DNA of 37,717 nucleotides, taken from Candidatus Zambryskiibacteriota bacterium (GTDB lineage Bacteria; Patescibacteriota; Minisyncoccia; Phycocordibacterales; DATGWK01). The translations under genes and the position numbers were made by a program. Shown in pieces: positions 2,020 to 21,858 of the stretch. How positions within the stretch are numbered: position 1 is the first letter of the stretch; every line of letters starts with the position of its first letter. The notes under the pieces are model-generated. The model had not been told where the DNA came from. It saw only the letters and a list, made by a program, of their open reading frames with translations, and made no database searches. The DNA lies in assembly GCA_023264565.1 (NCBI GenBank), contig JAHFLV010000006.1, positions 1-37,717 of the forward strand, written 5' to 3'.

Positions 2020-2044
2020 TGAAGTAAAGTTATATCCTACTTTA

Positions 2045-2473: not shown

Positions 2474-2488
2474 ATATTTGTTTTAAAT

Positions 2489-3172
2489 TTATGCGGCTTT
2501 CTGCTGCTTATCTTTATCTTTTTCGAAGATATCACCTTTGTAGATCCAAACCTTGATTCCGATCTGACCGTAGGTCATTCGAGCTTCGTATCGAGTAAAG
2601 TCGACATCTGCACGGAGAGTCTGAAGTGGTACTCGACCCTTTCGGAGTTTCTCAACGCGTGACATTTCGGCACCACCAAGACGACCTGAAAGTTCGATCT
2701 TTGCACCCAAGACACCCTTGTTTGCAATAATCTTTTCCAAAGATTGTTTGATGACACGTCGGAATGGAAGGCGCTTTTCGAGACCTTCGGCAATCATCTG
2801 AGCCATGATGTGCGCATTGGTTTCTGGGTATCGAACTTCTTTGATCTCAATTTTGATTTCTTCTTTTGGATTGATTCCAAGCTTTGTTGCCTGCTTCAAA
2901 AGATCTGACTGGAGTTTTGCGGTACCCTCACCTGCTCGGCCAATGATAAGACCTGGGCGTGAAGTTTCGATAACGATCTTCAAGGTTTTTTGACCTCGCT
3001 CGATTTCGATGTTGCTTACATACATACCTCGGAAACGTTCTTCCAAATATTCTCGAGTCAAAATATCGCTTCGGAGATTTACCTTGTATGAATTCTTAGG
3101 AGAAAACCATCGGGACTTCCAGTCTCTGATGATTCCAAGTCTATGTGCGTATGGGTGGACTCGATGTGACAT
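2489..3172 (-). CDS. rpsC: 30S ribosomal protein S3
   Basis: Starts MSHRVHPYAHRLGIIRDWKSRWF (canonical S3 N-terminus) at ATG 3172, 4 nt after the rplV stop. The upstream extension in the track ORF overlaps rplV and was rejected. Confidence 0.93.
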   Translation of the reverse strand: MSHRVHPYAHRLGIIRDWKSRWFSPKNSYKVNLRSDILTREYLEERFRGMYVSNIEIERGQKTLKIVIETSRPGLIIGRAGEGTAKLQSDLLKQATKLGINPKEEIKIEIKEVRYPETNAHIMAQMIAEGLEKRLPFRRVIKQSLEKIIANKGVLGAKIELSGRLGGAEMSRVEKLRKGRVPLQTLRADVDFTRYEARMTYGQIGIKVWIYKGDIFEKDKDKQQKAA

Positions 3173-3176
3173 ATGA

Positions 3177-3560
3177 TTATTTTGTTTCAGTTTTAGCTTT
3201 AGTTGCTTTTGCCTTAGGCGCTTTTTCTGCCTTTTCAGCCAAAGAAACAGCGATATGACTTGTTCGCTTTCGTTTTGTAAAAGCTCGGCCTCGTGACATT
3301 GGAAGTCGTCGGTACAAAGTTGCACCAGCGTTTACAGAAATGTTGCTGATCACAAGAGCGTCGACATTCATGCCTTTGTTTTTTGCATTCGCAACAGCAG
3401 ACTCGATAAGTTTGATGATCGGGCCAGTTGCTCGTTTGTTAGCAAATTTAAGAGTTGTGATTGCCTGAGGAACTTTCTTTCCTCGAACAAGATCAGCGAG
3501 TAAACGCACCTTTCGTGGTGATTGTCGGTATGTATTGAGTTGTGCGTTTGCTGATTCCAT
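3177..3560 (-). CDS. rplV: 50S ribosomal protein L22
   Basis: 127 aa; SPRKVRLLADLVRGKKV...AVANA pattern of L22, with a Lys/Ala-rich C-terminal tail. Confidence 0.93.
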   Translation of the reverse strand: MESANAQLNTYRQSPRKVRLLADLVRGKKVPQAITTLKFANKRATGPIIKLIESAVANAKNKGMNVDALVISNISVNAGATLYRRLPMSRGRAFTKRKRTSHIAVSLAEKAEKAPKAKATKAKTETK

Positions 3561-3580
3561 GTGAGTGAAGTATTGAAAAA

Positions 3581-3937
3581 TTATTTCTTAGCGCCGCCAG
3601 TTTTAGCGTCAGCAGCAGCTTTTGCAGCCTGAGCAGAAGCGATTTCAGATTCTTTCGCCTTTGTTTCCATTTCTTTCTGCATCTTTCCTCCGTGTCGGAT
3701 GAATTTACGAGTCAAAGAAAATTCACCAAGTCGGTGACCAACCATGTCTTCGGTAACAAGCACTGGAACGTGTTCGCGACCGTTGTGAACACCAAAAGTG
3801 AAACCAACCATTTCTGGTGCGATTTGGCTGTCTCGAGCCCACGTCTTAATAACTCCTGCTTCACTGGTTTTCTTTCCAGCGATTTTCAAGAGAAGTTTTT
3901 CGTAGACGTATGGTCCTTTTTTGGTCGATCGTGTCAT
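3581..3937 (-). CDS. rpsS: 30S ribosomal protein S19
   Basis: [11 protein letters not shown]...[24 protein letters not shown] is canonical S19. ATG at 3937; there is a ~35-aa Ala/Lys-rich C-terminal extension. Confidence 0.93.
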
Positions 3938-4006
3938 TTTAAAATTTATTTGATTGTGCCGCGATGGGCGTTTCGGAGTTGTCTTTTGCAGGGCGCTTTT
4001 TATTAA

Positions 4007-4038
4007 ACAAAAAACCTGCCCCACTCCTCGAAGGCAGG
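4007..4038 (-). terminator. Terminator-like hairpin inside the rpsS leader (candidate attenuator)
   Basis: CCTGCC/GGCAGG stem, 12-nt loop, followed by TTTTTTG on the minus strand. Lies between the promoter at 4087-4114 and the rpsS ATG at 3937. Confidence 0.4.
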
Positions 4039-4086
4039 CCCGAACTGCTGGTAAAGCAATGTGGGCGCGCTAATTGCGTAGGGAGA

Positions 4087-4114
4087 ATAGTAGCAGAAGA
4101 TGAAAAAGAGTCAA
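4087..4114 (-). promoter_or_regulatory. Sigma70-like promoter upstream of rpsS
   Basis: Minus strand reads TTGACT-16 nt-TACTAT with the CTTCTGC block abutting the -10. Confidence 0.6.
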
Positions 4115-4152
4115 GAATTTGGCCTCCATTCCCTTCTTATAATTTAGTAGGC

Positions 4153-4179
4153 AAACAAAAAGCGTCCAAAATGGACGCT
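4153..4179 (-). terminator. Intrinsic terminator of the 57-aa peptide gene
   Basis: AGCGTCCA/TGGACGCT 8-bp perfect stem, 3-nt loop, TTTTTG tail on the minus strand, 25 nt after the stop. Confidence 0.75.
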
Positions 4180-4203
4180 GTGTGGAACAAAAGAACCTGT
4201 AGA

Positions 4204-4377
4204 TCACTTACTGAACTTGGCGTGGAAGTAGGCCTGAACGAAAGCCGGATACCAGTCGGGAGGTGCCAGGACGACGTAGGCCAACAGAAGTATGCTTGTA
4301 AATGCAATGGCCGCACCAACCAGAAACCCCCGACGAATCCCCGAGTCTTCCTTCTTTGGGTCATATCCCCTTGCCAT
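4204..4377 (-). CDS. 57-aa single-pass membrane peptide (hypothetical)
   Basis: ATG at 4377 is preceded by AGGAG 9 nt upstream. One hydrophobic helix (FLVGAAIAFTSILLLAYVVLA). It has its own TTGACT-16-TATAAT promoter and its own 8-bp hairpin terminator. Confidence 0.6.
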   Translation of the reverse strand: MARGYDPKKEDSGIRRGFLVGAAIAFTSILLLAYVVLAPPDWYPAFVQAYFHAKFSK

Positions 4378-4446
4378 GGACAGAATCTCCTTACTATCTT
4401 TGGTCAGAGTGTTACACCCAGGCACAAGCCACAGGTTTCTAGCATC

Positions 4447-4474
4447 ATTATACACTTATAAAAGTAAAAGTCAA
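4447..4474 (-). promoter_or_regulatory. Promoter of the 57-aa peptide gene
   Basis: Minus strand reads TTGACT-16 nt-TATAAT (consensus -10), about 65 nt upstream of the ATG at 4377. Confidence 0.65.
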
Positions 4475-4499
4475 TAGTTCCTGAAAGTTGATCTTCCAA

Positions 4500-4523
4500 C
4501 AAAAAAGCCTCATTTCTGAGGCT
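4500..4523 (-). terminator. Intrinsic terminator after rplB
   Basis: AGCCTCA/TGAGGCT 7-bp stem, TTTC/GAAA loop, U6 on the minus strand, about 30 nt after the rplB stop. Confidence 0.7.
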
Positions 4524-4551
4524 TTTTTGTTCACTTTTTCGTGAGGAGATT

Positions 4552-5403
4552 TTATTGTTCTTTGCCTTTCTTTCCGACTCGGCGTCTTGAAACAATGAAG
4601 ACGTTTGAGTATTTCTTTGGAGTTCGGCTCTTCTGACCCTTTCCTGTTGGGCGGCCAGTTCGAGTCATCGCTCGTCGGCGACCTCGGCCTTGTCGGCCTT
4701 CGCCTCCACCGTGCGGATGATCGACTGGGTTCATAGCAGTACCTCGGACAGTCGGACGAATACCCAACCATCGGCTGCGACCTGCTTTTCCAAGCTGAAC
4801 GAGTCGGTTTTCGTCGTTTGAAACTTCACCAATTGAAGCCCATGCGAGTTCTGAAACTTTTCGAACTTCAGTTGAAGGAAGTTTGACGTGAGCAAAACCT
4901 GAATCTTTTGCAATGATTTCTGCAAAGTTACCTGCTGAACGAGCCATTTTGGCACCGGAACCCGCTTTGAACTCTACGTTGTATATAAATGTTCCCAATG
5001 GAATGTCTTTGATTGGAAGACGATTTCCTGGAGTGATCGGAGCGTTTTCTGCAGCAAGGATTTCTTGGCCAGGTCGAACGTTCTTTGGGAGAAGGATGTA
5101 TCGCTTTTCGCCGTCTTTGTAGTTTACGAGACCAATGAAACCCGTTCGATTTGGATCGTATTCAACGGTTTTAACAACACCAGGAACGCCGATTTTATCC
5201 ATTCGAAAATCGATTTCTCGGAAGAGTCGTTTGTGACCACCTCCCTTATGATTCATGGTGATTCGGCCGAAATTGTTGCGACCCATCGGACGTCGGAAAC
5301 CATGAGTAAGTTTCTTATGAGGTTCGTTGGTAGTGATCACTGCTCGGTAAGAGACAGTAGTCATATTTCGGCGTGATTTTGTTGTTGGTCGATAGCGTTT
5401 CAT
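4552..5403 (-). CDS. rplB: 50S ribosomal protein L2
   Basis: 283 aa; GRNNFGRITMNHKGGGHKR and MNPVDHPHGGGEGR signatures of L2. Confidence 0.96.
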   Translation of the reverse strand: MKRYRPTTKSRRNMTTVSYRAVITTNEPHKKLTHGFRRPMGRNNFGRITMNHKGGGHKRLFREIDFRMDKIGVPGVVKTVEYDPNRTGFIGLVNYKDGEKRYILLPKNVRPGQEILAAENAPITPGNRLPIKDIPLGTFIYNVEFKAGSGAKMARSAGNFAEIIAKDSGFAHVKLPSTEVRKVSELAWASIGEVSNDENRLVQLGKAGRSRWLGIRPTVRGTAMNPVDHPHGGGEGRQGRGRRRAMTRTGRPTGKGQKSRTPKKYSNVFIVSRRRVGKKGKEQ

Positions 5404-5438
5404 GTTTGTTTGGTCGTGTTGTTGTAGGCGGCAGTGTA

Positions 5439-5906
5439 TTACACAATTTCAATCTTGTCACCTTCTTTAAGGTACACATAGGCTTTCTTAATACCAGATG
5501 AAACACCTGATCGGCCTCGGTAGAAAACGTTCTTGCTTGGAGTTCGAGCAATAGAAACCTTTACTGGTCGAACCTTAAACATTGAGAAAATTGCTTCTCG
5601 AACGCTTACTTTGTTTGCATCATGAGCGATTTCGAAAACAAAAACGTTTTCAGCATCAGCTTTGTAAGATGACTTTTCAGTAACTCGTGGGCGAAGAATG
5701 ACTTTGCTGTAATTTACTGCTGGGTTTGAAGAAACCTGAGCATCTGCAACAACAGCAGGAGTTTTTGCAACTTTTTCTTTTGGAGCTTTTACAGCTTTTG
5801 TCTTAGCAACTTTTGCCTTAGGTGCAGCATCAGTTTTTGCTGTTTTTGCAGCCTTTGGCTTTACATCCTTTGCTTCGTCTTTTGTTTTTTTGCTAAAAAG
5901 TCCCAT
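5439..5906 (-). CDS. rplW: 50S ribosomal protein L23 with Lys/Ala-rich N-terminal extension
   Basis: The C-terminal ~95 aa (ILRPRVTEKS...VFVFEIAHDANKVSVREA...KKAYVYLKEGDKIE) is L23. The first ~60 aa are AKxK repeats. Confidence 0.9.
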   Translation of the reverse strand: MGLFSKKTKDEAKDVKPKAAKTAKTDAAPKAKVAKTKAVKAPKEKVAKTPAVVADAQVSSNPAVNYSKVILRPRVTEKSSYKADAENVFVFEIAHDANKVSVREAIFSMFKVRPVKVSIARTPSKNVFYRGRSGVSSGIKKAYVYLKEGDKIEIV

Positions 5907-5907
5907 A

Positions 5908-6627
5908 TTATTTGGTTAGTTTTCCAGAAATAGCCTTTACTGATTCAGCTGGGTTCACAAACATAACATATTTGTATTTTGCGAGTTCAAGCGGACTCAA
6001 GTTTCGAGCTTCGTTTACTTTTACGTTTGAGAAGTTTCGGAAACTCTTTTCGATTGCTTCGTTCTTGTTTTCGAGAGCCATAACAAGCGCGTTAGATTTC
6101 TTTCCAGAGATTCTCTTGTACGCTTCGATCTTGCCGATTGAACCAAAAATTTCTTTTGCGTCTTTTGTCTTTGGACCAGACATAGCGAGTGAATCCATGA
6201 AGATCACTTCACCCTGCTGCATCTTTCGAGAAAGAATGGTGTACAAAGCTTTTGCACGCATCTTTTGGTTAACCTTTCGGTCGAAGTTCTTGTCGTTTCG
6301 TGGACCATGAGTAACACCTCCACCAACCCAGATTGGAGATCGAGTAGAACCGTGTCGAGCGCGACCAGTTCCCTTTTGCTGCCAAGGCTTCTTTCCGCCT
6401 CCGCGAACGTCACCTCGCATTTTTGTATGCGCAACAGTTTTTCGGATTGAAGTCTGAAGAGACTGGAGCACCTGATGAACCAAGTCGGCATTCCAAGGCA
6501 AACCGAATACATCCTGAGGAAGTTCGTACTTTCCTACTTCAGCGCCTTTTGAGTTGTAGACAATCGCGTCTTTTGCGACTTTAGCGACTTTGGCGACTTT
6601 TTTTGTTTTTGTAGTTTCGTTTTTCAT
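5908..6627 (-). CDS. rplD: 50S ribosomal protein L4
   Basis: 239 aa; RGGGKKPWQQKGTGRARHGS motif of L4. Lies between rplC and rplW. Confidence 0.95.
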   Translation of the reverse strand: MKNETTKTKKVAKVAKVAKDAIVYNSKGAEVGKYELPQDVFGLPWNADLVHQVLQSLQTSIRKTVAHTKMRGDVRGGGKKPWQQKGTGRARHGSTRSPIWVGGGVTHGPRNDKNFDRKVNQKMRAKALYTILSRKMQQGEVIFMDSLAMSGPKTKDAKEIFGSIGKIEAYKRISGKKSNALVMALENKNEAIEKSFRNFSNVKVNEARNLSPLELAKYKYVMFVNPAESVKAISGKLTK

Positions 6628-6644
6628 ATCAGTATGGATCGGTA

Positions 6645-7262
6645 TTAGCCGGTTACTTCAACAAGAGTGCCTCGGCGACCTGGAACAGCACCACTCACAA
6701 CGAGAGTGTTTGTTGCTGGATCAGCCTGAAGAACAATGAGGTTCTTTACGGTAACACGATCGCCACCAGTTCGGCCGGCCATTCGCATACCCTTTGGAAC
6801 TTTGTTTCGGAGACCTCCGCCGATAGAACCTGGTTCTCGCTCAGAATGTTTCTGACCGTGGCTTCGTGGACCTCCTTTGAAACCGTGTCGCTTCACAACA
6901 CCCTGGAAACCTTTTCCTTTAGAAGTTGCAGAAACAGCAACCGTATCCCCTGGAGCAAAGACGGTTACATCGAGTTTGTCACCAACGTTCTTTGGAGCAT
7001 TTTCAACTCCTTCAGTTCGGAATTCTTTGAGATGAGCAAAAGTACCGTAAGCCTTTGTGTGACCAACTTCTGATTTGCTGAGGTCCTTTTCTTTCTTTGA
7101 ACCAAAACCAATCTGGATAGCTTCGTAGCCATCTTTTTCTTTTCCCTTCACCTGAGTGACGGTCATAGGACCTGACTGGAGGACGGTTGCTGAAAAGACT
7201 TCGCCGTTATCAGCAAACACCTGCGTCATATGCAGTTTTTTAGCAAGAATGAATTTCATCAA
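6645..7262 (-). CDS. rplC: 50S ribosomal protein L3
   Basis: 205 aa; KKLHMTQVF...SKGKGFQGVVKRHGF motifs of L3. The start could be the second Met (7259). Confidence 0.95.
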   Translation of the reverse strand: MMKFILAKKLHMTQVFADNGEVFSATVLQSGPMTVTQVKGKEKDGYEAIQIGFGSKKEKDLSKSEVGHTKAYGTFAHLKEFRTEGVENAPKNVGDKLDVTVFAPGDTVAVSATSKGKGFQGVVKRHGFKGGPRSHGQKHSEREPGSIGGGLRNKVPKGMRMAGRTGGDRVTVKNLIVLQADPATNTLVVSGAVPGRRGTLVEVTG

Positions 7263-7263
7263 T

Positions 7264-7632
7264 TTACATTATTTTCACTTCAATCGATACACCAGACGGC
7301 AAGCTCAAGTTTGTCAGGGATTCAATGATTTTCTGACTTGGATTGATGATATCAATCAAGCGCTTGTGAATGCGCATTTCGAACTGTTCACGAGCGTTTT
7401 TGTAGACGAACGCCGCGCGGTTTACTGTGTACTTTTTGATCTCTGTTGGCAACGGGATCGGTCCAACAATTTCTGCATCATAACGAAGCGCAGTATCGAT
7501 GATCTGCTTTACAGACAAATCAAGGATCTTGTATTCGTACGCTCGCACACGAATGCGGAGTTTAGAAACACCAGAAGCAGCCGCCTTAGGCGCTTTGACT
7601 TTCTTTTCTTTTGCTGCTGCTTTAGTTGCCAT
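7264..7632 (-). CDS. rpsJ: 30S ribosomal protein S10
   Basis: [14 protein letters not shown]...GPIPLPT...HKRLIDI is canonical S10, with a ~20-aa Lys/Ala N-terminal tail. Confidence 0.95.
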
Positions 7633-7658
7633 GTTTTTAAAAGATCAATTAATAGGTA

Positions 7659-8849
7659 TTAGGCGATGATTTTTGTTACGACGCCGGCACCAACAGTCTT
7701 ACCACCTTCGCGAATCGCGAATCGCTGCTTCTCTTCGAGAGCAACAGGGGCAATAAGCTTCACTTTGAAAGTGATGGTATCACCTGGCATAACCATTTCA
7801 ACGTTTGCAGGAAGTTCGACTTCACCAGTAACGTCAGTGGTTCGGATGTAGAACTGTGGTTTGTAACCCTTAAAGAATGGAGTGTGGCGACCACCTTCTT
7901 CTTTCTTCAAGATGTAGACTTCTGATTCGAATTCAGTATGAGGCTTCACTGAACCTGGTTTTGCAATAACCTGACCTCGAGAAATGTCTTCTTTCTTCAA
8001 ACCTCGGAGAAGAATACCTGCGTTGTCGCCGGCCATACCTTCGTTAAGAGATTTGTTGAACATTTCGATACCAGTAACAACAGTAGCTGATGTTGGTTTG
8101 AGACCGACAAGATCAACAGGTTCACCAACCTTTACCTGACCTCGTTCGATACGACCAGTAACAACAGTACCTCGGCCTTCAATTGAGAAGACGTCTTCGA
8201 TAGGCATAAGAAACGGCTTGTCGAGTTCTCGGACAGGCTGTGGGATGTAGGTATCGAGAGCGTTAGCGAGCTCAAGAACTTTCTGAGACCATTCGTCTGT
8301 GTTGTCTTTTGCTTCAAGAGCCTTAAGGCCTGAACCTCGGATAACAGGAGCATTTTTACCATCAAAGTTGTACTTTTCGAGGAGGTCTCGAACTTCTTCT
8401 TCAACGAGGTCGATCAATTCCTTATCAGGAACCATATCGCACTTGTTAAGGAAAACGATGATCTTAGGTACGCCGACCTGCTTTGCGAGAAGAACGTGTT
8501 CTCGAGTCTGTGGCATAACACCGTCAGTAGCAGCAACAACAAGGATAGCGCCGTCCATCTGAGCAGCACCGGTAATCATGTTCTTGATGTAGTCAGCATG
8601 ACCAGGAGCGTCGATGTGAGCGTAATGACGAGTATCTGTCTCGTATTCCTGATGAGAAAGATTGATCGTAATACCACGGGCCTTTTCTTCAGGAGTGTTG
8701 TCGATAGCGTCGACACCTTTAATAACAGCCTTTTTTCCCGCTCGGTTAAGAACGTTAAGGATAGCTGCAGTAAGGGTTGTTTTGCCGTGATCAACGTGGC
8801 CGATAGTACCTACGTTAACGTGTGGCTTTGAACGATCAAAATTTGCCAT
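7659..8849 (-). CDS. tuf: Elongation factor Tu
   Basis: 396 aa; [17 protein letters not shown] and NKCD GTPase motifs. Full-length EF-Tu. Confidence 0.98.
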
Positions 8850-8965
8850 AATTTTTACTAAAAATTAACTTTTAAATAATATTTGGTTTCGTTTCTTTTA
8901 TGCCAGACACCGAGAGTATTTCGTAGTGTGCCAAAACAAAAACGACGCTAAAAGCGGTACACAGC

Positions 8966-8993
8966 ATAGTATCAAAGGAGCTAAATTAGTCAA
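8966..8993 (-). promoter_or_regulatory. Sigma70-like promoter upstream of tuf
   Basis: Minus strand reads TTGACT-16 nt-TACTAT, immediately after the U-run of the preceding terminator. Confidence 0.6.
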
Positions 8994-9017
8994 GAAAAAA
9001 CCCCGCATTATGCGAGG
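8994..9017 (-). terminator. Intrinsic terminator of Cys-rich gene 1
   Basis: Minus strand CCTCGCA-TAA-TGCGGGG 7-bp stem (one G-U pair) followed by TTTTTT. Confidence 0.7.
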
Positions 9018-9062
9018 CGTTGTAGCTTTTTGGTAGACACCGCTGTGTTCATTGCCAGTTAT

Positions 9063-9602
9063 TTATGGACTGGCGGGTTGATTACAGCACAAACCGAGCA
9101 ATGCCTTGAGGTTGTTCTGGAGAACTCCGAGGGCGTGCTGCGTGCGATCCTCAACATCCTGAAGACAACTCACAAGTGCGGGCGATGGGATCGGGTTATA
9201 TGTCAGACAATAACAATAGGCGTCGTACCAATTCTGGTTAAGCTCTTCGAGGTCCTTGTAGTATTGAATAATCTCAGCCTTCACACAGTCACTGTCCAGA
9301 ATCCCTCCTGATGGACAAATGAAATTAGGGTCGGCGCTCAAAACCCATAAGAAAAAGTCCGTGTGGTACTGGGGCAAGAACGCGCAGGGATCGTCTGCGT
9401 TTTCAAGTGCTTTCACAAGGAGACCAACCCTTTGGGTGGGGTCGGCCTCCTTTAGTGCCTGGGCAACAAAGTACGAACGCTCGCTGTTCGGCACCAACAC
9501 CCTATCTGGCGGCATGGACACCACCTGGGCCGAGACCGAACGAGACAACGTTGCGACGACCGAAACCAGAAGAAGAACACGAAGATTAAGCTTCAAACTC
9601 AT
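9063..9602 (-). CDS. Secreted Cys-rich protein, family member 1 (hypothetical)
   Basis: ATG at 9602 is preceded by GAGGAG (7-nt spacing). Signal peptide ends VSA|QVV. Eight Cys including a CYC motif. By-eye homology to the ORF at 10812-11351. Own promoter and terminator. Confidence 0.7.
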   Translation of the reverse strand: MSLKLNLRVLLLVSVVATLSRSVSAQVVSMPPDRVLVPNSERSYFVAQALKEADPTQRVGLLVKALENADDPCAFLPQYHTDFFLWVLSADPNFICPSGGILDSDCVKAEIIQYYKDLEELNQNWYDAYCYCLTYNPIPSPALVSCLQDVEDRTQHALGVLQNNLKALLGLCCNQPASP

Positions 9603-9675
9603 GTGCAAACTCCTCAAAATGCGCGTCTCTCTCGAGAGATCGCTGTGTTAAAGAACGATTTGGATTCGACCCAGA

Positions 9676-9704
9676 ACACTACCAGGAATTCCCTTGATGG
9701 TCAA
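9676..9704 (-). promoter_or_regulatory. Promoter of Cys-rich gene 1
   Basis: Minus strand reads TTGACC-17 nt-TAGTGT, about 70 nt upstream of the ATG at 9602. Confidence 0.45.
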
Positions 9705-9715
9705 AAAACAAAACA

Positions 9716-10459
9716 TTAGAAACCGACAACCGGAGGAATTAAATCTCTCGTGGGTGGTGTGGTTATTGTTGGACGAACAGGTGGTATAGGACATTCTTGT
9801 GGCATAAGTTTCAAGGTTTTTGGGTCAACAGTATAACAAAACCTTTCGATTTCAGGAGAAATCGTTGGATCTACGAGATGACAATCGACTCGGAAAAGAC
9901 CAGACGGATCGCCCGGTAGACTCGGTTTTAACTCACATTTAACCTTCGGCAAGTAAGAACTTGGGATATCAAAAAACGGTGTTGTGACCTCTATTTTGCA
10001 AGGCTTGTCAGATGCTTCACAAGTAATTTTAATGACGTAGCAAACACTCGTGCGGTTAATAATCGTACAAAGACGAAACTCTTGTTTGCCATGTCGCACA
10101 TCCCCTTCCTTCAAACAGATTCCTGGAACATGAACACCGTTAGGTGCTCCTGGAAAATTTGGCACTGGAAAATATTGTGCGGGTGGCTGACACCAGTCTG
10201 GTGCGGCTGGGGTTGTTGGTGGTGTGGAGGATGGCTTCTCAGGGGGTTTTGTTGTATCAGCCTTTGTGGCTGTAGTAAACGAAAGCAACGAGGTAGCTGA
10301 TGAATTTGTGGAGAGAATAACAGAGGCCACTGCTTTTGAGTATATTTCTTTCTCAGCAACATTTCCCGAAGTGAGACGGACGGTAAGGTTTCCGGCAAAC
10401 ACAAGACATACAAAAACAATGGCAGCGAGTGAAAAAAATGAAACTAATTTTTTATTCAT
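9716..10459 (-). CDS. Secreted protein with Pro/Thr linker and Cys-rich C-terminal domain (hypothetical)
   Basis: 247 aa. N-terminal hydrophobic signal/anchor (LVSFFSLAAIVFVCLVFAG), a KPPEKPSSTPPTTPAAP linker, then about 10 Cys in the C-terminal 150 aa. Confidence 0.65.
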   Translation of the reverse strand: MNKKLVSFFSLAAIVFVCLVFAGNLTVRLTSGNVAEKEIYSKAVASVILSTNSSATSLLSFTTATKADTTKPPEKPSSTPPTTPAAPDWCQPPAQYFPVPNFPGAPNGVHVPGICLKEGDVRHGKQEFRLCTIINRTSVCYVIKITCEASDKPCKIEVTTPFFDIPSSYLPKVKCELKPSLPGDPSGLFRVDCHLVDPTISPEIERFCYTVDPKTLKLMPQECPIPPVRPTITTPPTRDLIPPVVGF

Positions 10460-10499
10460 TAAAAAAATTTATTATTCTAAAGCTAAAAATAGTATACAG

Positions 10500-10525
10500 C
10501 AAAAAACCCGCCAACAAGTGGCGGG
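10500..10525 (-). terminator. Intrinsic terminator of the lipoprotein gene
   Basis: CCCGCCA/TGGCGGG 7-bp stem, 5-nt loop, U6 on the minus strand. Confidence 0.7.
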
Positions 10526-10549
10526 TTTGAACGGACGGATACAAAAACC

Positions 10550-10738
10550 TCAGTTCTTGGGCAGATCGATGTGTTGATGCGTTGCCGTGACCTCGGCAGT
10601 CTTTTGGTCAGCGACAGCCTTGGTTGCCAGGAACAGCGTCGGATCGTTCTTGGCCATACAGCCCGGAAAGAAGGTGACGGTAGCGGTCATCAGAACGACA
10701 ACACCTGTCCACGTTAGAATTTTTATAACAACCTTCAT
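10550..10738 (-). CDS. 62-aa putative lipoprotein
   Basis: ATG at 10738 with GGAG upstream. Signal peptide ends in the lipobox-like FFPG|C. Followed by a 7-bp GC hairpin plus U-run. Confidence 0.55.
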   Translation of the reverse strand: MKVVIKILTWTGVVVLMTATVTFFPGCMAKNDPTLFLATKAVADQKTAEVTATHQHIDLPKN

Positions 10739-10811
10739 ATGCGCTCCTCTCTTTCTGAGTATTTTGAATATGTACAACCTCTAAATATTATGTATTTATA
10801 TCTACATTGTG

Positions 10812-11351
10812 TCAAACGCACTCTCCATTCTTAACCAAATAAAAAACCCGCCTGGAGGCGGGGTGCTTTAAAGCACATGTTTCACATTCGATCAGGGTAA
10901 CACACCGTCTGGCACACAACTCGAGATCAGCATCCGCCGAACTGAGACAGTCCCCTAATTTCTGAGGATCGTCTTCGTAGATTTCTCGACAATCACACTG
11001 CCTATGGCGCCATGCATTGAGGGAGGTAATGAGGTCGGCCACGTACCGCGTACGAACGTCGTCGACACAGTCTGGATTCAGATGGTGCTTCGGTGCCTTA
11101 CAGGGAATATCGACCAACGCGTACGAAAGCCATTCCATGAACTTGGGATACGTCACCGGGTCATCATCGCAATAAAGCGTCGGCTCCATGAGCGAAACAG
11201 CATATTCAAAGAGCGCAGACTCAGAAACGAAGTGCGCCCCAACTGTCGGTGGTGGGGTGATGATCTGGGCCAAGGATTTTTGTCCTGGGAACAAGACCAT
11301 CGAGGCCGCAATCACACAAGCAAAAAACACGGGGCTTAACTTCTGACGCAT
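10812..11351 (-). CDS. Secreted Cys-rich protein, family member 2 (hypothetical)
   Basis: ATG at 11351 preceded by AGGAGTTTGTG (same RBS context as member 1). Signal peptide ends SLA|QII. Conserved DDP, DCV and CxC (CDC) positions shared with member 1. Own promoter. Confidence 0.7.
   Translation of the reverse strand: MRQKLSPVFFACVIAASMVLFPGQKSLAQIITPPPTVGAHFVSESALFEYAVSLMEPTLYCDDDPVTYPKFMEWLSYALVDIPCKAPKHHLNPDCVDDVRTRYVADLITSLNAWRHRQCDCREIYEDDPQKLGDCLSSADADLELCARRCVTLIECETCALKHPASRRVFYLVKNGECV
10838..10863 (-). terminator. Intrinsic-terminator hairpin lying inside the last ~17 codons of Cys-rich gene 2
   Basis: CCCGCC/GGCGGG 6-bp stem, 4-nt loop, TTTTTTATTT on the minus strand. The ORF stop is only reached at 10812. 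Confidence 0.6.
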
Positions 11352-11418
11352 CACAAACTCCTATAAATGTACCCCCAACAAGGAGGCGTTACGAAAGAAC
11401 AAAAAACACAGACTGAAA

Positions 11419-11447
11419 ATGGTAGCAGAAGAAAAATAACTGGTCAA
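11419..11447 (-). promoter_or_regulatory. Promoter of Cys-rich gene 2
   Basis: Minus strand reads TTGACC-17 nt-TACCAT with the same CTTCTGC block as the promoters at 56-83 and 4087-4114. Confidence 0.55.
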
Positions 11448-11474
11448 TAAATATGTCGTACACAAAAACCCAAC

Positions 11475-11496
11475 AAAAAACCGGCTTTCACCGATC
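11475..11496 (-). terminator. Weak intrinsic terminator after fusA
   Basis: Minus strand AUCGGU-GAAA-GCCGGU (6 bp, two G-U pairs, GAAA loop) followed by UUUUUG. Confidence 0.45.
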
Positions 11497-11552
11497 TTTT
11501 GTTTTTCTTTAAAAATATTTGATCGCCCTAGAGACAATCTGCAATCGCGCGA

Positions 11553-16717: not shown

Positions 16718-17596
16718 TCATTCAACTCGCGTAAATTTTTTCCCATCGCTTTTCATAATAATCGTGCCAAGCTGATCGGTACGAAAAAGTTTCAAAGGAA
16801 ATTTGGCGAGGGTCGCTAATGTTTCATCATTTGGATGACCATATTTATTTTCTTTGCCGCAAGAAATCACGGCGTATTGAGGATTCACCATTTTTACAAA
16901 CTCTTCGCTCGACGAAGTTTTCGATCCGTGATGCCCCGCTTTTAAAATATCACTTTCGAGTCGCAAGAACTGCGGCGTGCTGCTGTCAGTAATACTAAGC
17001 AGATGATTTTCTACACCAATCGGCGCGTCGCCCGTAAGCATGACTTCGGTTTCACCATACGTAAGACGCGCAACGATCGAACCATCGTTCGTAGTTTCCA
17101 TAGACACATCGCGGTCCGGAAATAAAACAGTCAGGATAACTTCCCTGCCCGGTGTATCATCCAAAATTATTTTCATACCACGTCGAGCCAGCGTTTTTGG
17201 AATTTCTTTTTCTTTAATTAATTCTTGAAGCGTTGTATGAGTCAGTGTTTTGCTTTGTGTTCCCGGTTCCAACACGCTTCCAACATCGAATCGTTTTAAA
17301 ATATCAATAAAGCCAGCAATGTGGTCCTTGTCGGGATTCGTAATAACGATCATGTCGAGGGATTTGTCGTACCACGGCATGACAGCACCTAATTCATGGA
17401 GCACTTTGGCATCGGGCCCGCCATCCACCAGGATCTGATTACCGTTCGGGGCCTCAATAAAAATTGCATCACCCTGACCGATATCGAGAAAAGCCACGGT
17501 GAGCTCGTGCCGAGCTGATTCAAGATACACTGCATGCCAAATCGCGCCGTTTGTTACGGCAAGCAATGTCATCAGGCCAATAAAAAACTTTTTCAT
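16718..17596 (-). CDS. Membrane-anchored metallo-beta-lactamase fold protein (ComEC C-terminal-domain type)
   Basis: N-terminal anchor MKKFFIGLMTLLAV. LDIGQGDAIFIE, NPDKDHIAGF and AGHHGSKTSSS motifs as in the ComEC/Rec2 MBL domain. Confidence 0.8.
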   Translation of the reverse strand: MKKFFIGLMTLLAVTNGAIWHAVYLESARHELTVAFLDIGQGDAIFIEAPNGNQILVDGGPDAKVLHELGAVMPWYDKSLDMIVITNPDKDHIAGFIDILKRFDVGSVLEPGTQSKTLTHTTLQELIKEKEIPKTLARRGMKIILDDTPGREVILTVLFPDRDVSMETTNDGSIVARLTYGETEVMLTGDAPIGVENHLLSITDSSTPQFLRLESDILKAGHHGSKTSSSEEFVKMVNPQYAVISCGKENKYGHPNDETLATLAKFPLKLFRTDQLGTIIMKSDGKKFTRVE

Positions 17597-17641: not shown

Positions 17642-18262
17642 ATGTATAAATACACAGAACAAAAGTTTAGTATTCCGGAGTTAAAAGGAATCTCAAAAAA
17701 GGCTATAGAAGAACACGTAAAGCTCTACGCGGGCTATGTTAAAAATGCGAATTTAATTAACGAAAAAATTGTCGAGTACAAAACCGACAGCGAAAAAAAT
17801 GCGTATGCGCTCGGTGAACTTCAGCGCCGTTTTTCTTTTGAATTCAACGGCATGCGCAATCATGAATATTATTTCAAAAGTCTCGAAGGTGGCGCGCAGG
17901 CGCTCGGCACCAACAGCCCACTTCGTGCTCAGATTGAAAAAGATTTTGCAGATTTTGCCACAAATGGCATGAGCGCATTCGACGGCTGGCTTGCATCTTT
18001 CAAGGCCATCGCCCTTACCCGCGGCATCGGCTGGGCAATGCTGTACTACGATCAGCACACAGGCACACTCACCCACGCTTGGGTTGATGAGCAACATTTG
18101 GGTCAGTTGAACGGTCTTCAGCTCGTGCTTGGTCTCGATATGTGGGAACACTCTTTCCTCTTCGATTATGTGCCTGCTGACAAGAAAAAATACGTTGAAG
18201 CCTTTTTCGAAAACCTCAACTGGTCAGTAATCGAAAAGAATTTTGTTGAGGCAACAAAATAA
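17642..18262 (+). CDS. Fe/Mn-family superoxide dismutase (divergent)
   Basis: 206 aa; N-terminal His (IEEH), NGMRNHEYYF and LGLDMWEHSF motifs match the four SOD metal-ligand positions. Confidence 0.75.
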   Translation: MYKYTEQKFSIPELKGISKKAIEEHVKLYAGYVKNANLINEKIVEYKTDSEKNAYALGELQRRFSFEFNGMRNHEYYFKSLEGGAQALGTNSPLRAQIEKDFADFATNGMSAFDGWLASFKAIALTRGIGWAMLYYDQHTGTLTHAWVDEQHLGQLNGLQLVLGLDMWEHSFLFDYVPADKKKYVEAFFENLNWSVIEKNFVEATK

Positions 18263-18295
18263 TCAGGAGCGATTAAAAAATTAAAAAAACAAAAG

Positions 18296-18324
18296 CCGCC
18301 ACGAAAACCTCGGGCGGTTTTTTG
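18296..18324 (+). terminator. Terminator after the SOD gene
   Basis: CCGCC/GGCGG stem with a 12-nt loop followed by TTTTTTG. Confidence 0.45.
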
Positions 18325-18343
18325 TTGCCTAAATTTCACAAAA

Positions 18344-18367
18344 GAAAAACCCCGCGAATGCGCGGGG
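18344..18367 (-). terminator. Intrinsic terminator of the 313-aa secreted-protein gene
   Basis: CCCCGCG/CGCGGGG 7-bp stem, 4-nt loop, U5 on the minus strand. Confidence 0.7.
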
Positions 18368-18390
18368 TTTTGGGGGTATTTGAAAAATGC

Positions 18391-19332
18391 TCACCAGAAC
18401 CAGCCCATGAGCCCATATCCCACCTCATCACACCAGTCGTTGAGAGTTTTCTGTGGACTGGCGCCGGGGTTGATAGGATCGAGCGGCCACTTGAAGAAGG
18501 GCGGCACCTCGGGAAACACGGTGATGTTGTATATCCGTGTCCGGTCACCATCGCCGGAGATTGTTGTATCCCAACGTTCGGGAAGAAAGGTGTCAGTGTT
18601 GATGTAGAGATACTGAGAGACAGCGTCGCCGCCCGCTCGAATAAAACTGACATCGAACACATAGCACCCATGACCGCGCAAAGCTGCACGCCGCTCCTCG
18701 ACGGGGTTACGAACTCCTCCGGTGATCTTCTCTAAGAACACTTCCACCATGTCCGTGCTCGACTTGTATGCGGGCACATTTGCTGAAGGCTCTCCGAGCC
18801 AACTCAGTGTCAGCGTCGAGAGCGAGCAGTCCAATTCTGAACTGCCATGGAAGCTATACGGGCCGAATGACGTGTCGCTTTTGTAGTAATAGAACTTGCC
18901 GTTGTCCGCAGAACGATACTCGGACACATCACCGTCCATACCACCAACAAGCGAAATGGCCATGATGAGTTTGTCGCCTTCGTAGACCCGAGAATGCATC
19001 ATGCCTGGTGCCATGTAGCAAACTGACTTGATCGTCACGGGCTCCTCGAAAGTCCTCCAGCCGTCCCTCAAGCCGGGAAAACCGGACGTGATAACAGACT
19101 CGAGCTTGAGAAACTTGATCCCCGAACGGAGCTTATCCCGAACGCGATCTGCGATATCAGTGTTCGAGAGCTCCTTTGAGGCTTCTGTCTTGGGAACCAG
19201 ATCGGTCTTTTCCGATTTCTCTGGATTTGCCATCACCACGGGATTGGGTTCAAATCGAGCCACCACGAGCGACTCACCCGTCTGCTTTGGGACCACACAG
19301 AACATCAAAACAAATGCGATGAAGAACTTCAT
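18391..19332 (-). CDS. Secreted 313-aa protein (hypothetical), GC-rich island
   Basis: Signal peptide MKFFIAFVLMFCVV. GAAGGGAG RBS. TTGACA-17-TACTTT promoter and a 7-bp GC hairpin terminator. No family recognised. Confidence 0.65.
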   Translation of the reverse strand: MKFFIAFVLMFCVVPKQTGESLVVARFEPNPVVMANPEKSEKTDLVPKTEASKELSNTDIADRVRDKLRSGIKFLKLESVITSGFPGLRDGWRTFEEPVTIKSVCYMAPGMMHSRVYEGDKLIMAISLVGGMDGDVSEYRSADNGKFYYYKSDTSFGPYSFHGSSELDCSLSTLTLSWLGEPSANVPAYKSSTDMVEVFLEKITGGVRNPVEERRAALRGHGCYVFDVSFIRAGGDAVSQYLYINTDTFLPERWDTTISGDGDRTRIYNITVFPEVPPFFKWPLDPINPGASPQKTLNDWCDEVGYGLMGWFW

Positions 19333-19397
19333 GTGATACTCCCTTCAAAAGAAGCGGTGTTCCAAAAAGTCTGACAAATAACTACGCTCTGTAATAA

Positions 19398-19426
19398 AAA
19401 GTACGCTGTTAAATCACGAATGTCAA
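19398..19426 (-). promoter_or_regulatory. Promoter of the 313-aa secreted-protein gene
   Basis: Minus strand reads TTGACA-17 nt-TACTTT, directly after the upstream terminator. Confidence 0.55.
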
Positions 19427-19431
19427 GCATA

Positions 19432-19455
19432 GAAAAACCCCGCATTTCTGCGGGG
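19432..19455 (-). terminator. Intrinsic terminator of the 223-aa secreted-protein gene
   Basis: CCCCGCA/TGCGGGG 7-bp stem, 4-nt loop, U5 on the minus strand. Confidence 0.7.
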
Positions 19456-19482
19456 TCTGTTGTGTATAAAACGAGTGGAGAC

Positions 19483-20154
19483 TCACTTCATGACGACGAG
19501 TGGCGCCTGTCCCGCGTCGCGCACGATCTTGTTCTGACAGGTGGCGGAGTACGAGCTGTTTTCGTTCTGCTTACAGCTCTTCTGATCTTCACAGTCGCGC
19601 GGACTGCAGGACCTCACATCCACTGACATGTGGGTTCGAATGCACTTGCATTCCGTACCCATCACCTTCCCTGTGTCCACGTTGATAAGCAGGTGAATGG
19701 GGTCGGTGCCGTCCAGGTTCGCATTGTCGATCGTCAGACCAGTGTTGCCCGAAATGCCGAAGTTGAAGACCATCACCTCGCCGGTGGTGGGGCTCATGCC
19801 AACGTAGGAAATGTTCGTATCGGTGTAGCTGGACAGGTCGCTCGTCTCGAGCAACTCGCCGTTCACGAAGACGTACAGGGTGCCGTCGGACCAGTAGTGA
19901 TCCACGTAGTTACCGTGGAAATTGCCGCTGTGAATCCAGGGACCCTCGGTTGTACGAGCGTCGAGCATCTGACTGACCGTGACCCCGGGGATTGCCGGCA
20001 AATCCGGAACCGCCGTCGCTGTGGACTTCATGCTGACCGTCGGCCCGTTGATCGGGGTGACGATCTGGGCCGAAGTCTGTCGGCCGAAAACCGCCGTAAC
20101 CAAAACCGCAATCATGAAAGACGCCAAGGACTGCAAACTGATACGCTTCTTCAT
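19483..20154 (-). CDS. Secreted 223-aa protein with Cys-rich C-terminus (hypothetical), GC-rich island
   Basis: GGAGG RBS. Signal peptide ends TSA|QIVTP, like the two fusA-tuf island paralogues. Beta-rich middle region. C-terminal CKC plus four further Cys. Hairpin terminator. Confidence 0.6.
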   Translation of the reverse strand: MKKRISLQSLASFMIAVLVTAVFGRQTSAQIVTPINGPTVSMKSTATAVPDLPAIPGVTVSQMLDARTTEGPWIHSGNFHGNYVDHYWSDGTLYVFVNGELLETSDLSSYTDTNISYVGMSPTTGEVMVFNFGISGNTGLTIDNANLDGTDPIHLLINVDTGKVMGTECKCIRTHMSVDVRSCSPRDCEDQKSCKQNENSSYSATCQNKIVRDAGQAPLVVMK

Positions 20155-20274
20155 AGGAACCTCCAGTTACCACCATGGCTAGCCCAAACTACACAGCTTG
20201 GGCAAAAAACTAGGAAGGGACTCCGACGAACGCATTAACCTCAATCCTTTTACTTTCTACCTATAGCCTATACC

Positions 20275-21858
20275 TTATGTCTTTTTCGTCAAATTACTCC
20301 ATATAAAAATAATAATTGTAAGTACATAGAAACCGGCCACAATTACAGTTGAAAATCCGCTAAAAGGAATACTTGCGAGTGAAAATTTCGAGAAAAAGTC
20401 GACGACTGCAAGCTCATACGAAAGCAACAGGTGCGCAACGAACGCAAAAGGCATAGCCAAAAATCGCCACACCAAACCCGCGACAGCAGTTAGAAAACTC
20501 AAAAGCATTGTCACAGACACAAGTGGCACCACCAAAATGTTTGTCGGCAAAGAGACAGCAGATACGAATCCTGTCATCCAAGAAAGAATTGGAAATAGAA
20601 AAAGCTGCACAGTAATATTTGAAATGACCAATTCACGAATGCCAAATTTTTCTGGTAACAGATATTTCAGATATTTTGTCAGGTTATGCGCCGAACCCGA
20701 AGAATCGCACACGTTACTCACCCACTTTTCACATTTCGGCACAATTTTAATAACAGCAAACGTCGCCAAAAATGAAAGTTGGAACGAGGGGCTGTGCGAT
20801 AAAATTCCTGGATTTTGAATGAGCATCAGAAATGTCGCAATAAAAAGCCCGCGAGCTGGATCATAACTTCGCATAAACAATCGCGAGATGATCACAATGA
20901 TCGCCATTATCGAAGCACGAACAACAGTCGCCGTGGCACCCGTAACCATAGTAAACGCAATAATTCCCAAACTCGCTGAAAACAAACCGAAAAAACGCGG
21001 CAGAAACGCGAATACCCTACTCAGTGCCTCAGCAACAATAGAAACGTTCGAACCCGACAGCACCACAATGTGCACAATGCCGGTTTTCTGAAATTTTTCT
21101 TGAAGCTCGCCATTGATCGACTGCTTACCATCGATAAGAATGCCGGCCGCAAGCGAACTTTCTGGTTCCGGCAACATGTTTCGAATCGACCCAACAAAGG
21201 CTCGTTTAGCAAAAAATAAGCCAGAAAGAATTCTACTCGGCGGATCGTGGCCAAGCACCGTAACCGAAGCATTTTTTATAAGAAACTTGATATGGTTTGT
21301 ACGCAGGTACCCAACATAGTCGAATTCCCTGCCAGTTTCTGTATAGAAATTTTCTGGCAGACTCACCGTGCCCGTGACTCGCACCACGTCGCCATATGTA
21401 AAATCTTTTGGATTGTCGGTAGTGACGAGGACTTTTATTCCAGAAACTTTCTGTGTTTGCGTAATTTTTTCTTGCGTTTTGGCAGTGGTCCCAGATTGTA
21501 TTTCTTGAACAATTACATTAAGCCGTGTATTAAAATCTCGCTTCTCCTGCTCTTCCCCAATCACGCCAACCATCGAAATTTTTGTATCAACATATTGATC
21601 AATCGGAGTTTTCCGATTATTCAGGACAAGAGCGACGTAACCCCGAAGAAATCCAGCACTAGTAGCAAGCGCAATGACTAGTAAAAGTATCGCGGCAGAT
21701 TTCCTACCTAAGAACAAACATATTGCTGCAGTAAGTAAAAGAATTGCACTAATAGAAATTATTAGTGGGAGATATTCCCTGAAGATTTCATGCGTTACGA
21801 TTCCAGCGCAAAAACTAACCACCAACACATAGAGAATTGATTCCCGTAAATTCACCAA
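20275..21858 (-). CDS. comEC: ComEC/Rec2 DNA-uptake channel (OB/DUF4131-like plus competence membrane domain, no MBL domain)
   Basis: 527 aa, about 10 hydrophobic helices. VSLPENFYTE...FDY..YL OB-like region followed by the polytopic competence domain. TTG/GTG start. Confidence 0.75.
   Translation of the reverse strand: MVNLRESILYVLVVSFCAGIVTHEIFREYLPLIISISAILLLTAAICLFLGRKSAAILLLVIALATSAGFLRGYVALVLNNRKTPIDQYVDTKISMVGVIGEEQEKRDFNTRLNVIVQEIQSGTTAKTQEKITQTQKVSGIKVLVTTDNPKDFTYGDVVRVTGTVSLPENFYTETGREFDYVGYLRTNHIKFLIKNASVTVLGHDPPSRILSGLFFAKRAFVGSIRNMLPEPESSLAAGILIDGKQSINGELQEKFQKTGIVHIVVLSGSNVSIVAEALSRVFAFLPRFFGLFSASLGIIAFTMVTGATATVVRASIMAIIVIISRLFMRSYDPARGLFIATFLMLIQNPGILSHSPSFQLSFLATFAVIKIVPKCEKWVSNVCDSSGSAHNLTKYLKYLLPEKFGIRELVISNITVQLFLFPILSWMTGFVSAVSLPTNILVVPLVSVTMLLSFLTAVAGLVWRFLAMPFAFVAHLLLSYELAVVDFFSKFSLASIPFSGFSTVIVAGFYVLTIIIFIWSNLTKKT

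Follow-up and report, generated by a model that had tools for sequence, protein, structure and literature searches.

The question raised by this locus is what kind of element occupies positions 18330–20260 of the 37,717 base pair (bp) stretch of DNA analyzed here (the window), where the guanine plus cytosine (GC) content rises abruptly between sod, the gene for an Fe/Mn superoxide dismutase (SOD), and the competence gene comEC. An earlier note on this DNA had called the segment a sharp compositional island with two secreted-protein genes, and had offered two explanations, horizontal acquisition or strong selection within the lineage on a family of secreted proteins, which turn out to be the right pair of alternatives. 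We show that the region is a genuine two-gene accessory cassette for proteins predicted to be exported in a Candidatus Saccharibacteria genome, and the gene pair is previously undescribed. We further propose, with a probability of roughly 0.55, that the cassette works as an extracytoplasmic, hypervariable module that circulates horizontally, with natural transformation or GC-biased conversion as possible sources of its renewal. The window as a whole has a GC content of 0.449, and its genes include ribosomal protein genes, tuf, fusA, comEC, recJ and type IV pilus genes. We treat its genome as belonging to the Saccharibacteria because a metagenome-assembled genome (MAG) titled “uncultured Candidatus Saccharibacteria bacterium” has an EF-G 92% and an EF-Tu 94% identical to those encoded here.

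The two genes are a large one encoding 313 amino acids (O313, 18391–19332) and a small one encoding 223 amino acids (O223, 19483–20154), both on the minus strand. The GC content of the segment is 0.531, compared to 0.446 ± 0.013 with a maximum of 0.473 in 638 windows of the same size elsewhere (z 6.7), and its tetranucleotide distance is likewise an outlier (z = 4.0). At third codon positions the GC content (GC3) reaches 0.643 in O313 (z 4.6) and 0.786 in O223 (z 7.3), relative to 0.397 ± 0.053 and a maximum of 0.488 in the 31 other genes, and it is high evenly along the full length of both; the synonymous-codon log-odds are low as well (z = −3.4 and −3.5). The segment is thus outlying by each of the GC, tetranucleotide and codon-usage comparisons that the earlier note had called for, and the line counts on which that note relied (38 of 60 G+C at 19501–19560, 18 of 60 at 20281–20340) are exact. 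Its picture of a sharp island needs to be amended, since the GC excess is real but not uniform: the spacers at 18263–18390, 19333–19482 and 20155–20274 have a host-like GC of 0.41–0.47 (host intergenic DNA has 0.43), and the GC-normalised dinucleotide signature of the segment is indistinct (z = 0.4). The “island” is two GC3-rich coding sequences within host-like non-coding DNA rather than a uniform block.

Every synonymous class in the cassette is GC-enriched. In O223 the C/(C+T) ratio at 2-fold sites is 0.80, the G/(A+G) ratio at 2-fold sites is 0.88 and the GC content of 4-fold sites is 0.77, while the ribosomal protein genes, tuf and fusA have values of 0.65–0.72, about 0.4 and 0.21–0.30, respectively. 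Since these highly expressed genes are so low in 4-fold GC, codon adaptation or translational selection of the host type can be excluded as the cause of the GC3 excess.

Both ORFs (open reading frames) are real, as had been believed, and belong to conserved families with conserved cysteines. The suspicion that high GC also opens spurious frames was equally sound: several of the ORFs that overlap the two genes are long, and one of 202 amino acids at 19630–20238 on the plus strand is the exact codon-antisense of O223, which stays open since A is the last base of just 6% of the O223 codons. The assignment of the sense strand is nonetheless secure, given that the order GC3 > GC1 > GC2 holds on the minus strand only and that Shine-Dalgarno sites, export segments, terminators and homologues with conserved motifs all agree with it. 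Automatic gene callers have picked the antisense of the small gene in three contigs (L001 3013–3621, L085 5894–7813 and L095 6203–6865), so that the small family is under-represented in protein databases and seems more “orphan” than it is.

The predicted expression signals are arranged gene by gene. Read from the sequence, the ribosome binding site (RBS) of O223 is GGAGG (20160–20164, minus strand), 5 nucleotides upstream of the ATG, and that of O313 is GAAGGGAG (19339–19346, minus strand), also upstream of its ATG; AAGGAG stands at the equivalent position in contig L005, a Hainich groundwater relative with the same gene pair at the same site. A putative sigma-70-type promoter for O313 lies at 19398–19426 on the minus strand, with TTGACA (19426–19421), a 17-nucleotide spacing and TACTTT (19403–19398). 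It had been described as clear, and it is present with a perfect −35 box, but the −10 box is weak with 3 of 6 matches and our promoter consensus scan did not call it. TTGACA-17-TATTCT can be seen by eye on the minus strand of the L005 spacer, with the −35 boxes of the two contigs offset in a MAFFT alignment (A4). Hairpins lie 3' of both stop codons, as the earlier note had stated, and are followed by T-runs. The predicted intrinsic terminator after O223 (19437–19456, minus strand) has the stem ACCCCGC / GCGGGGT followed by TTTTTCT, its hairpin being reported by the scan on the plus strand and its T-run tail being read on the minus strand. That after O313 (18346–18371, minus strand) has an 11-bp stem, AAAACCCCGCG / CGCGGGGTTTT, followed by TCTTTTG, in the interval toward which sod and O313 converge. 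Both terminators belong to one 37-nucleotide repeat (D1, AGAAAAACCCCGC...GCGGGG), whose copies at 18343–18379 and 19431–19467 are 73% identical. Judged from these elements, the two genes appear to be separately punctuated, each with its own RBS and terminator and with a promoter-like site before the large gene. Between comEC and O223 the scan reported no terminator, and there are no Rfam matches. We also note a similar CCCCGCG stem 3' of the large gene of L005, and a block AGTT(A/G)TTTGTCA that the large gene has kept in its 5' leader (about 19366–19378 in the window, minus strand, and about 9712–9724 in L005) within a spacer that has otherwise diverged; this block may be an operator or leader element.

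Both proteins begin with hydrophobic export N-termini by inspection and hydropathy. O223 has a KKR start, a hydrophobic core (Kyte-Doolittle 2.4) and TSA|Q, giving the putative Sec-type signal peptide MKKRISLQSLASFMIAVLVTAVFGRQTSA|QIV. The N-terminus of O313 is hydrophobic as well (Kyte-Doolittle 2.3), with no clear cleavage site, and may be a signal or an anchor. Behind its N-terminus O223 has a variable region of about 140 residues, strand-rich in a low-confidence model, and a C-terminal part with six invariant cysteines (C169, C171, C183, C188, C194 and C206) that presumably form three disulfides. O313 has, after its own N-terminus, a domain of about 250 residues with two near-invariant cysteines (C169 and C223) and W/R/P motifs (RWDT..R.R...P...W). 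N-termini in the rest of the large family look, by inspection, like signal peptides, membrane anchors or lipoboxes. Across genomes the small proteins measure about 200 residues and the large ones about 270–310. Taken with the conserved cysteines, these N-termini speak for an extracytoplasmic location.

Neither protein is easily placed by similarity search. Word-seeded searches of 5.8 billion proteins returned only self-matches, and the first relatives were found by synteny, in a metagenome scan anchored on sod followed by mapping of the neighbours. In L005 the gap between sod and comEC carries ORFs of 314 and 204 amino acids on the same strand as in the window. The 314-residue product (c314) is 27% identical to O313 over 255 residues (E 1e-14) and the 204-residue product is 23% identical to O223 over 111 residues, C-x-C tail included (BLASTP E 7e-9). 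An exhaustive phmmer search of 1.84 billion representative proteins with O313 and O223 fused then gave 27 relatives of O313 (E 8e-14 to 5e-4, 190–350 residues), all unnamed or labeled “hypothetical” and the closest at no more than 37% identity, and none of O223. We retrieved the contigs of nine relatives and searched their six-frame translations with local profiles.

The large family consists of O313, L005 c314 and P0003–P0029, and O313, although its most divergent member, shares with the others a core of about 230 residues with the motifs EIA-RVE--LRNA, QEYRP, DC...SWVG, C-VF, VYVDK-TFLV-RWDT and R-R...P...W. In an alignment of 28 sequences (A6), E138, G157, C169 and V225 are invariant and M107, W178, C223, W254, R266, P277 and W282 are conserved in at least 90%; the family hidden Markov model matches O313 with an E of 1.5e-68, O313 itself being among the aligned sequences. 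For the small family the local profile finds 11 distinct loci (E 1e-81 to 2e-6; 2e-75 for the window ORF, which is itself in the profile). In the alignment of O223 with its 10 partners (A9) the six cysteines are the sole invariant residues, and O223 carries the family motif C-x-C-x(8-11)-C-x4-C-x(4-6)-C-x(6-11)-C. Profiles of both families found nothing among PDB sequences and Pfam, and our literature searches brought up nothing relevant on a described equivalent. The two families are not related to each other (hhalign probability 2%). A phage or viral origin was rejected, with no tblastn match in 50,697 phage records, no PHROG and no IMG/VR locus, as was a known anti-phage defence system, with no PADLOC match; Pfam, NCBIfam, PHROGs and PADLOC contain no toxin or immunity domain that matches the cassette proteins.

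What makes the two genes a unit is their conserved adjacency. They are neighbors in 11 of 12 distinct contexts, and in 10 of the 11 full pairs the small gene precedes the large one on the same strand with a spacer of 117–177 bp; L093 has the reversed order with abutting genes, and on the 4.9 kb contig L092 only the large gene is seen. The cassette is sparse (27 clusters among the 1.84 billion representatives) and occurs at six or more different chromosomal sites. It occupies the comEC|sod site in the window, L005 and L084. A C-terminal fragment of the small family abuts sod in L004, the closest sod relative. In other contigs it follows murA-priA-def-fmt-hpf (L091 and L095), lies beside an MFS transporter, a methyltransferase and a two-component system (L085 and L094), or stands downstream of comF and the type IV pilus genes pilM/pilB (L089, 5125–5856 on the plus strand and upstream). 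Clearly beyond the candidate phyla radiation (CPR) lie the contexts on L086–88 (GC 0.51) and on L093 from farmland soil (GC 0.57). The taxonomy is firm only for L003 and L090, with L005 and L084 placed by synteny and identity to the window and the others by gene content and GC. As a side observation, the cassette lies directly 3' of competence genes in two unrelated classes of site, comEC (window, L005, L084) and comF (L089), a placement that may be coincidence or may reflect read-through co-expression. On L086, positions 2000–10000 are a compositional patchwork with neighboring genes at GC3 0.23–0.79, and a 158-residue ORF beside the cassette is weakly like the C-terminus of an IS91/ISCR transposase; the NCBIfam E of 4e-4 is far below the curated cutoff and there is no Pfam match, so that we count it as a weak IS91/ISCR-like remnant at most.

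The flanks themselves are outside the cassette. On one side lies sod (17642–18262, plus strand; Pfam Sod_Fe_C and Sod_Fe_N, and synteny), and beyond it a separate gene for the ComEC metallo-beta-lactamase (MBL) domain (16718–17596, minus strand); on the other lies the N-terminal part of ComEC (DUF4131 + Competence by Pfam; 20275–21858, minus strand), whose stop codon precedes the start of O223 by 120 bp. The arrangement MBL(−), sod(+), comEC(−) is kept in about 68 related metagenome loci as well as in the sister MAG contig L003, so that sod is not part of the island and the separate MBL gene is ancestral; the ideas that sod belongs to the island or that an insertion split comEC were rejected on the strength of these loci, where the arrangement stands without the cassette. 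The gap between sod and comEC is shorter than 200 bp in about 45 of the 68 loci, measures 300–800 bp with unrelated small ORFs in about 15 and exceeds 1 kb in four. On L007, from a close relative, it holds an IS30-type transposase (6995–8008, plus strand; HTH_38 + rve) with comEC inverted, and on L003 a different ORF of 104 amino acids (5910–6224, plus strand) with its own RBS and terminator, no signal peptide and a GC3 of 0.58 relative to about 0.42 in its host. The gap is a hot spot accepting mobile DNA. The comparison with sister genomes suggested by the earlier note accordingly gave a mixed outcome: the island is absent at comEC|sod in L003 and about 60 loci and present there in L005, L084 and, as a fragment, L004, so that it is not private to this genome. 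The L003 MAG (GCA_964492195.1) has a copy elsewhere in the same assembly, on its contig 2 (L090) near secE-nusG-rplK.

The unusual composition recurs with the pair. In all nine low-GC, CPR-like hosts (window, L005, L084, L085, L089, L090, L091, L094 and L095) GC3 falls in the order small gene, large gene, host, with ranges of 0.63–0.86, 0.49–0.64 and 0.35–0.55, respectively. In two of the three higher-GC hosts the cassette is below its surroundings, with 0.56 (small) and 0.54 (large) relative to flanks at 0.62–0.80 in L093, and 0.81 for the large gene, the only one seen, relative to 0.91 in L092 (GC 0.67); in L086, a mosaic at 0.23–0.79, the values of 0.44 (small) and 0.53 (large) are about equal to the host. 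In most of the hosts examined the cassette thus retains its own composition.

The pair also diverges much further than its surroundings. Between the window and L005 the flanks are 59–91% identical in amino acids (ComEC 59%, SOD 73%, EF-G 91%), the small protein 23% and the large 27%; between the window and L084 the values are 58–71%, 25% and 29%, and between L005 and L084 69–79%, 42% and 49%. At the other shared sites we find 76–89%, 27% and 37% for L091 and L095, and about 56%, 24% and 30% for L085 and L094. As log-distances computed from these identity values, the cassette changes about 2–6 times faster than its flanks. Among all members only L005 with L084 and L090 with L091 cluster, the latter two being at different sites, and the window copies form the longest branches.

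A second place in the window had been linked to this one, since the small protein was thought to be a paralogue of genes between fusA and tuf. There a 2.7 kb insertion (8850–11552) holds three ORFs for secreted cysteine-rich proteins without family matches (9063–9617, 9716–10459 and 10812–11354, all on the minus strand); the same gap measures 295 bp in the sister MAG and 442–2,056 bp in other relatives. The proposed paralogy does not hold. BLASTP of O223 against these ORFs gives an E of 0.008 over 41 residues in the signal peptide and cleavage region or nothing at all, and the similarity ends with the signal peptide and the “A-Q-I/V-I/V-T/S-P” cleavage region. A profile of the 184- and 180-residue products (O184 and O180, themselves only weakly similar at E 0.007) meets O223 at E 0.18, the small-family profile has no match to either at E ≤ 1e-3, and the six-cysteine pattern is absent from both. 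The DNA string common to O223 and these ORFs, GGCCCAGATC(G/A)TCACCCC, is expected from the same residues written with C-ending codons. What is shared is a raised GC3 (0.60 in O184 and 0.57 in O180). As a separate observation, occupants of the fusA-tuf gap elsewhere are also GC3-rich relative to the adjacent fusA (L044 658–975, minus strand, 0.66 vs. 0.26; L082 1473–2147, minus strand, 0.75 vs. 0.49), and the Saccharibacteria-like group may more widely carry accessory genes of high GC3 in its intergenic hot spots.

To account for the whole of this we propose that the cassette circulates horizontally among genomes and diversifies as it does so. Mobile elements do visit such neighborhoods, to judge from the IS30-type transposase in the L007 gap and the weak IS91/ISCR-like remnant beside the L086 cassette. 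In naturally competent hosts, allelic replacement through conserved flanks (here comEC and sod) may renew it, and GC-biased gene conversion at a recombination-prone locus may reinforce the GC3 excess. If the cassette circulates and is renewed in this way, its composition would belong to the gene family instead of being the scar of a single recent import. Saccharibacteria have been shown to be naturally competent in a ComEC-dependent manner and to integrate DNA through 0.5–1 kb of flanking homology (PMC10633639), and recombining genes have a higher GC3 in 11 of 14 bacterial groups, mostly via non-optimal GC-ending codons (PMC4450053). The combined scenario of transfer and GC-biased conversion thus seems mechanistically plausible. 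The weakest step concerns function, where we suggest with low confidence that an exported cystine-knotted protein works extracellularly in concert with a membrane-tethered partner; under diversifying selection, the two would form either a complex for surface or host interaction or a pair of the effector-immunity kind. To our knowledge, GC-biased conversion has so far not been documented in CPR bacteria.

A number of observations weigh against the proposal of a circulating, renewed module. On the side of function, Pfam, NCBIfam, PHROGs, PADLOC and PDB sequences give no match for either protein beyond noise (E ≥ 0.014), and single-sequence AlphaFold models are unusable for both, with a predicted local distance difference test (pLDDT) score of 31 for O313 and 42 for O223. 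On the side of mobility, recombination or transfer is a mechanism that we infer from sequence patterns, ORF, tRNA and repeat scans of the window found no integrase, transposase, tRNA or bracketing repeats (in keeping with what the earlier note had seen), and no closely similar cassette has been seen in two distant hosts. High GC3 is not general to secreted cysteine-rich genes, because the third fusA-tuf product (O247, 247 residues) is encoded at a host-like 0.33. The intra-cassette spacers across genomes are not GC-enriched (0.34–0.49), which would be unexpected for a regional neutral process such as GC-biased conversion or an unameliorated import, unless promoter and terminator function constrains them. 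The remaining points are those that a purely vertical history would explain. By that account the cassette stood at comEC|sod before the window, L005 and L084 separated and has since evolved fast, with GC3 held up by selection on the coding sequence or messenger RNA (stability, structure, or slow non-optimal codons for export and disulfide folding) or by GC-biased conversion alone, without transfer between genomes. The site and strand are the same in at least three Saccharibacteria, in which the relationships of the cassettes mirror those of the hosts (L005 and L084 being closest in both), and relative rates of 2–6, themselves derived from sequence identities, are compatible with plain vertical descent and fast evolution. 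All nine low-GC hosts show the GC3 excess, restricted to coding sequence between host-like spacers, and a flank identity of 58–79% implies saturated synonymous sites, at which the signature of a passive import should have decayed. The vertical account does not sit as well with the six or more sites, with a MAG that lacks the cassette at comEC|sod and has a copy elsewhere, or with the shared site of L091 and L095, where flanks at 76–89% identity enclose cassettes at 27–37%; the below-host GC3 in higher-GC hosts is more in line with a mobile gene out of equilibrium than with a fixed optimum, and O247 is likewise secreted and cysteine-rich but not GC3-rich. We regard descent without transfer as unlikely overall, while taking it seriously.

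A recent one-off import from a high-GC donor, for instance an actinobacterial host, that has yet to ameliorate would at once explain the sharp GC3 excess (z 4.6 and 7.3) and the absence of the cassette at this site in the sister MAG and in most of the 68 related loci, and family members do occur in GC-rich genomes (L092 at GC 0.67, L093 at GC 0.57). It is largely refuted by the orthologous cassettes at the identical site in L005, L084 and, as a fragment, L004. Neither is there a close donor, as no relative exceeds 37% identity in the 1.84 billion representatives and none appears for O223, and the spacers and signals (RBS, terminators and the promoter-like site) are of the host type and shared in position with L005, with no integrase, repeats or tRNA alongside. 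For these reasons a single recent import is excluded as the account of this site, and the idea as a whole is quite improbable. That the segment could be an assembly chimera, a contaminant or a GC-rich non-coding stretch with spurious ORFs is suggested by the ease with which high GC yields long ORFs in several frames, one of which, on the antisense strand, was chosen by the automatic caller for L001. Two independent assemblies of separate samples agree with the window, however: the same contig, L001, is 100% identical along 9,592 bp, both junctions included, and L002 covers 20320–18898 (1,423 bp, 1 mismatch), crossing the comEC-side junction and the inter-gene spacer. With homologues in about a dozen genomes that have conserved motifs, invariant cysteines and export signals, and with GC3 > GC1 > GC2 on the sense strand only, the artefact reading is refuted for practical purposes. 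Bases 1–75 of L001, an otherwise identical ENA contig, do not align to the window, which is probably a contig-end artefact or a strain difference.

Returning to the circulating module, a bolder version of it can be stated, which we consider doubtful. In epibiotic CPR bacteria the cassette might serve as a hypervariable locus for recognition or specificity, in which a secreted cystine-knot “ligand” and a matched, tethered partner co-evolve and decide which host cells or kin are engaged; alleles would be shuffled by ComEC-dependent transformation, and a recombination hot spot would have left the GC3 excess as its footprint, through GC-biased conversion. The logic would be similar to that of self-incompatibility loci, with their pairs of small cysteine-rich ligand and receptor, or to that of effector-immunity pairs. 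If this were true, the repeated siting beside competence genes would be no coincidence, whether at comEC (window, L005 and L084) or at comF and type IV pilus genes (L089).

CPR bacteria, the Saccharibacteria among them, live attached to bacterial hosts, and what determines their host range and cell-cell interaction is mostly unexplained. A conserved yet hypervariable exported pair with no annotation in any library is therefore a concrete candidate for host-interaction functions, in a group that is now genetically tractable (PMC10633639). The composition of the pair is unusual as well, being above that of low-GC hosts and below that of two of three higher-GC hosts, confined to coding sequence and persistent at flank identities of about 60–75%. 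This makes the cassette a case in which repeated transfer, GC-biased conversion and selection on synonymous sites might be told apart in reduced genomes.

It is instructive to compare the cassette with systems that are better known. The earlier note had suggested that the large protein might be LolA/RseB-like, and O313 does resemble such families in size, in its extracytoplasmic location and in a strand-rich, low-confidence model; its C-terminal “...VYVDK-TFL-RWDT...” looks by eye like the end of a LolA-like domain, a resemblance that is presumably no more than a lead. The suggestion finds no support in the models LolA, LolA_like, MucB_RseB and DUF4367-type, which match 0 of the 28 large-family members at E ≤ 1, or in PDB profile searches, and the structure model, at a pLDDT of 31, is unusable for judging the fold. 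A classical genomic island shares with the cassette an atypical composition, absence from many relatives at the site and accessory secreted products, but the cassette measures only about 1.9 kb, lacks integrase, transposase, tRNA and direct repeats, has host-like spacers and occupies the same site in diverged lineages.

Polymorphic toxin-immunity systems pair a secreted toxin or bacteriocin with a membrane-tethered or lipoprotein immunity protein. The cassette is like them in being a linked, co-diverging pair with a disulfide-rich exported first product and an anchored second one, patchy in distribution and fast in evolution. It differs in having no toxin, immunity or delivery domain by Pfam, NCBIfam, PADLOC or PDB, separate terminators, a promoter-like site between the genes and no secretion-system marker. 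Capsule and O-antigen loci are hypervariable, lie between conserved flanks, are exchanged by homologous recombination and have an atypical GC. Compared to these the cassette has only two genes, whose products are not biosynthetic enzymes, its GC is above that of low-GC hosts, it is found at unrelated sites and in other phyla too, and its exchange is only proposed here. The likeness lies in a cassette that sits between housekeeping flanks, is far more divergent than those flanks and atypical in composition, and does without mobility genes of its own in a naturally transformable host (PMC10633639).

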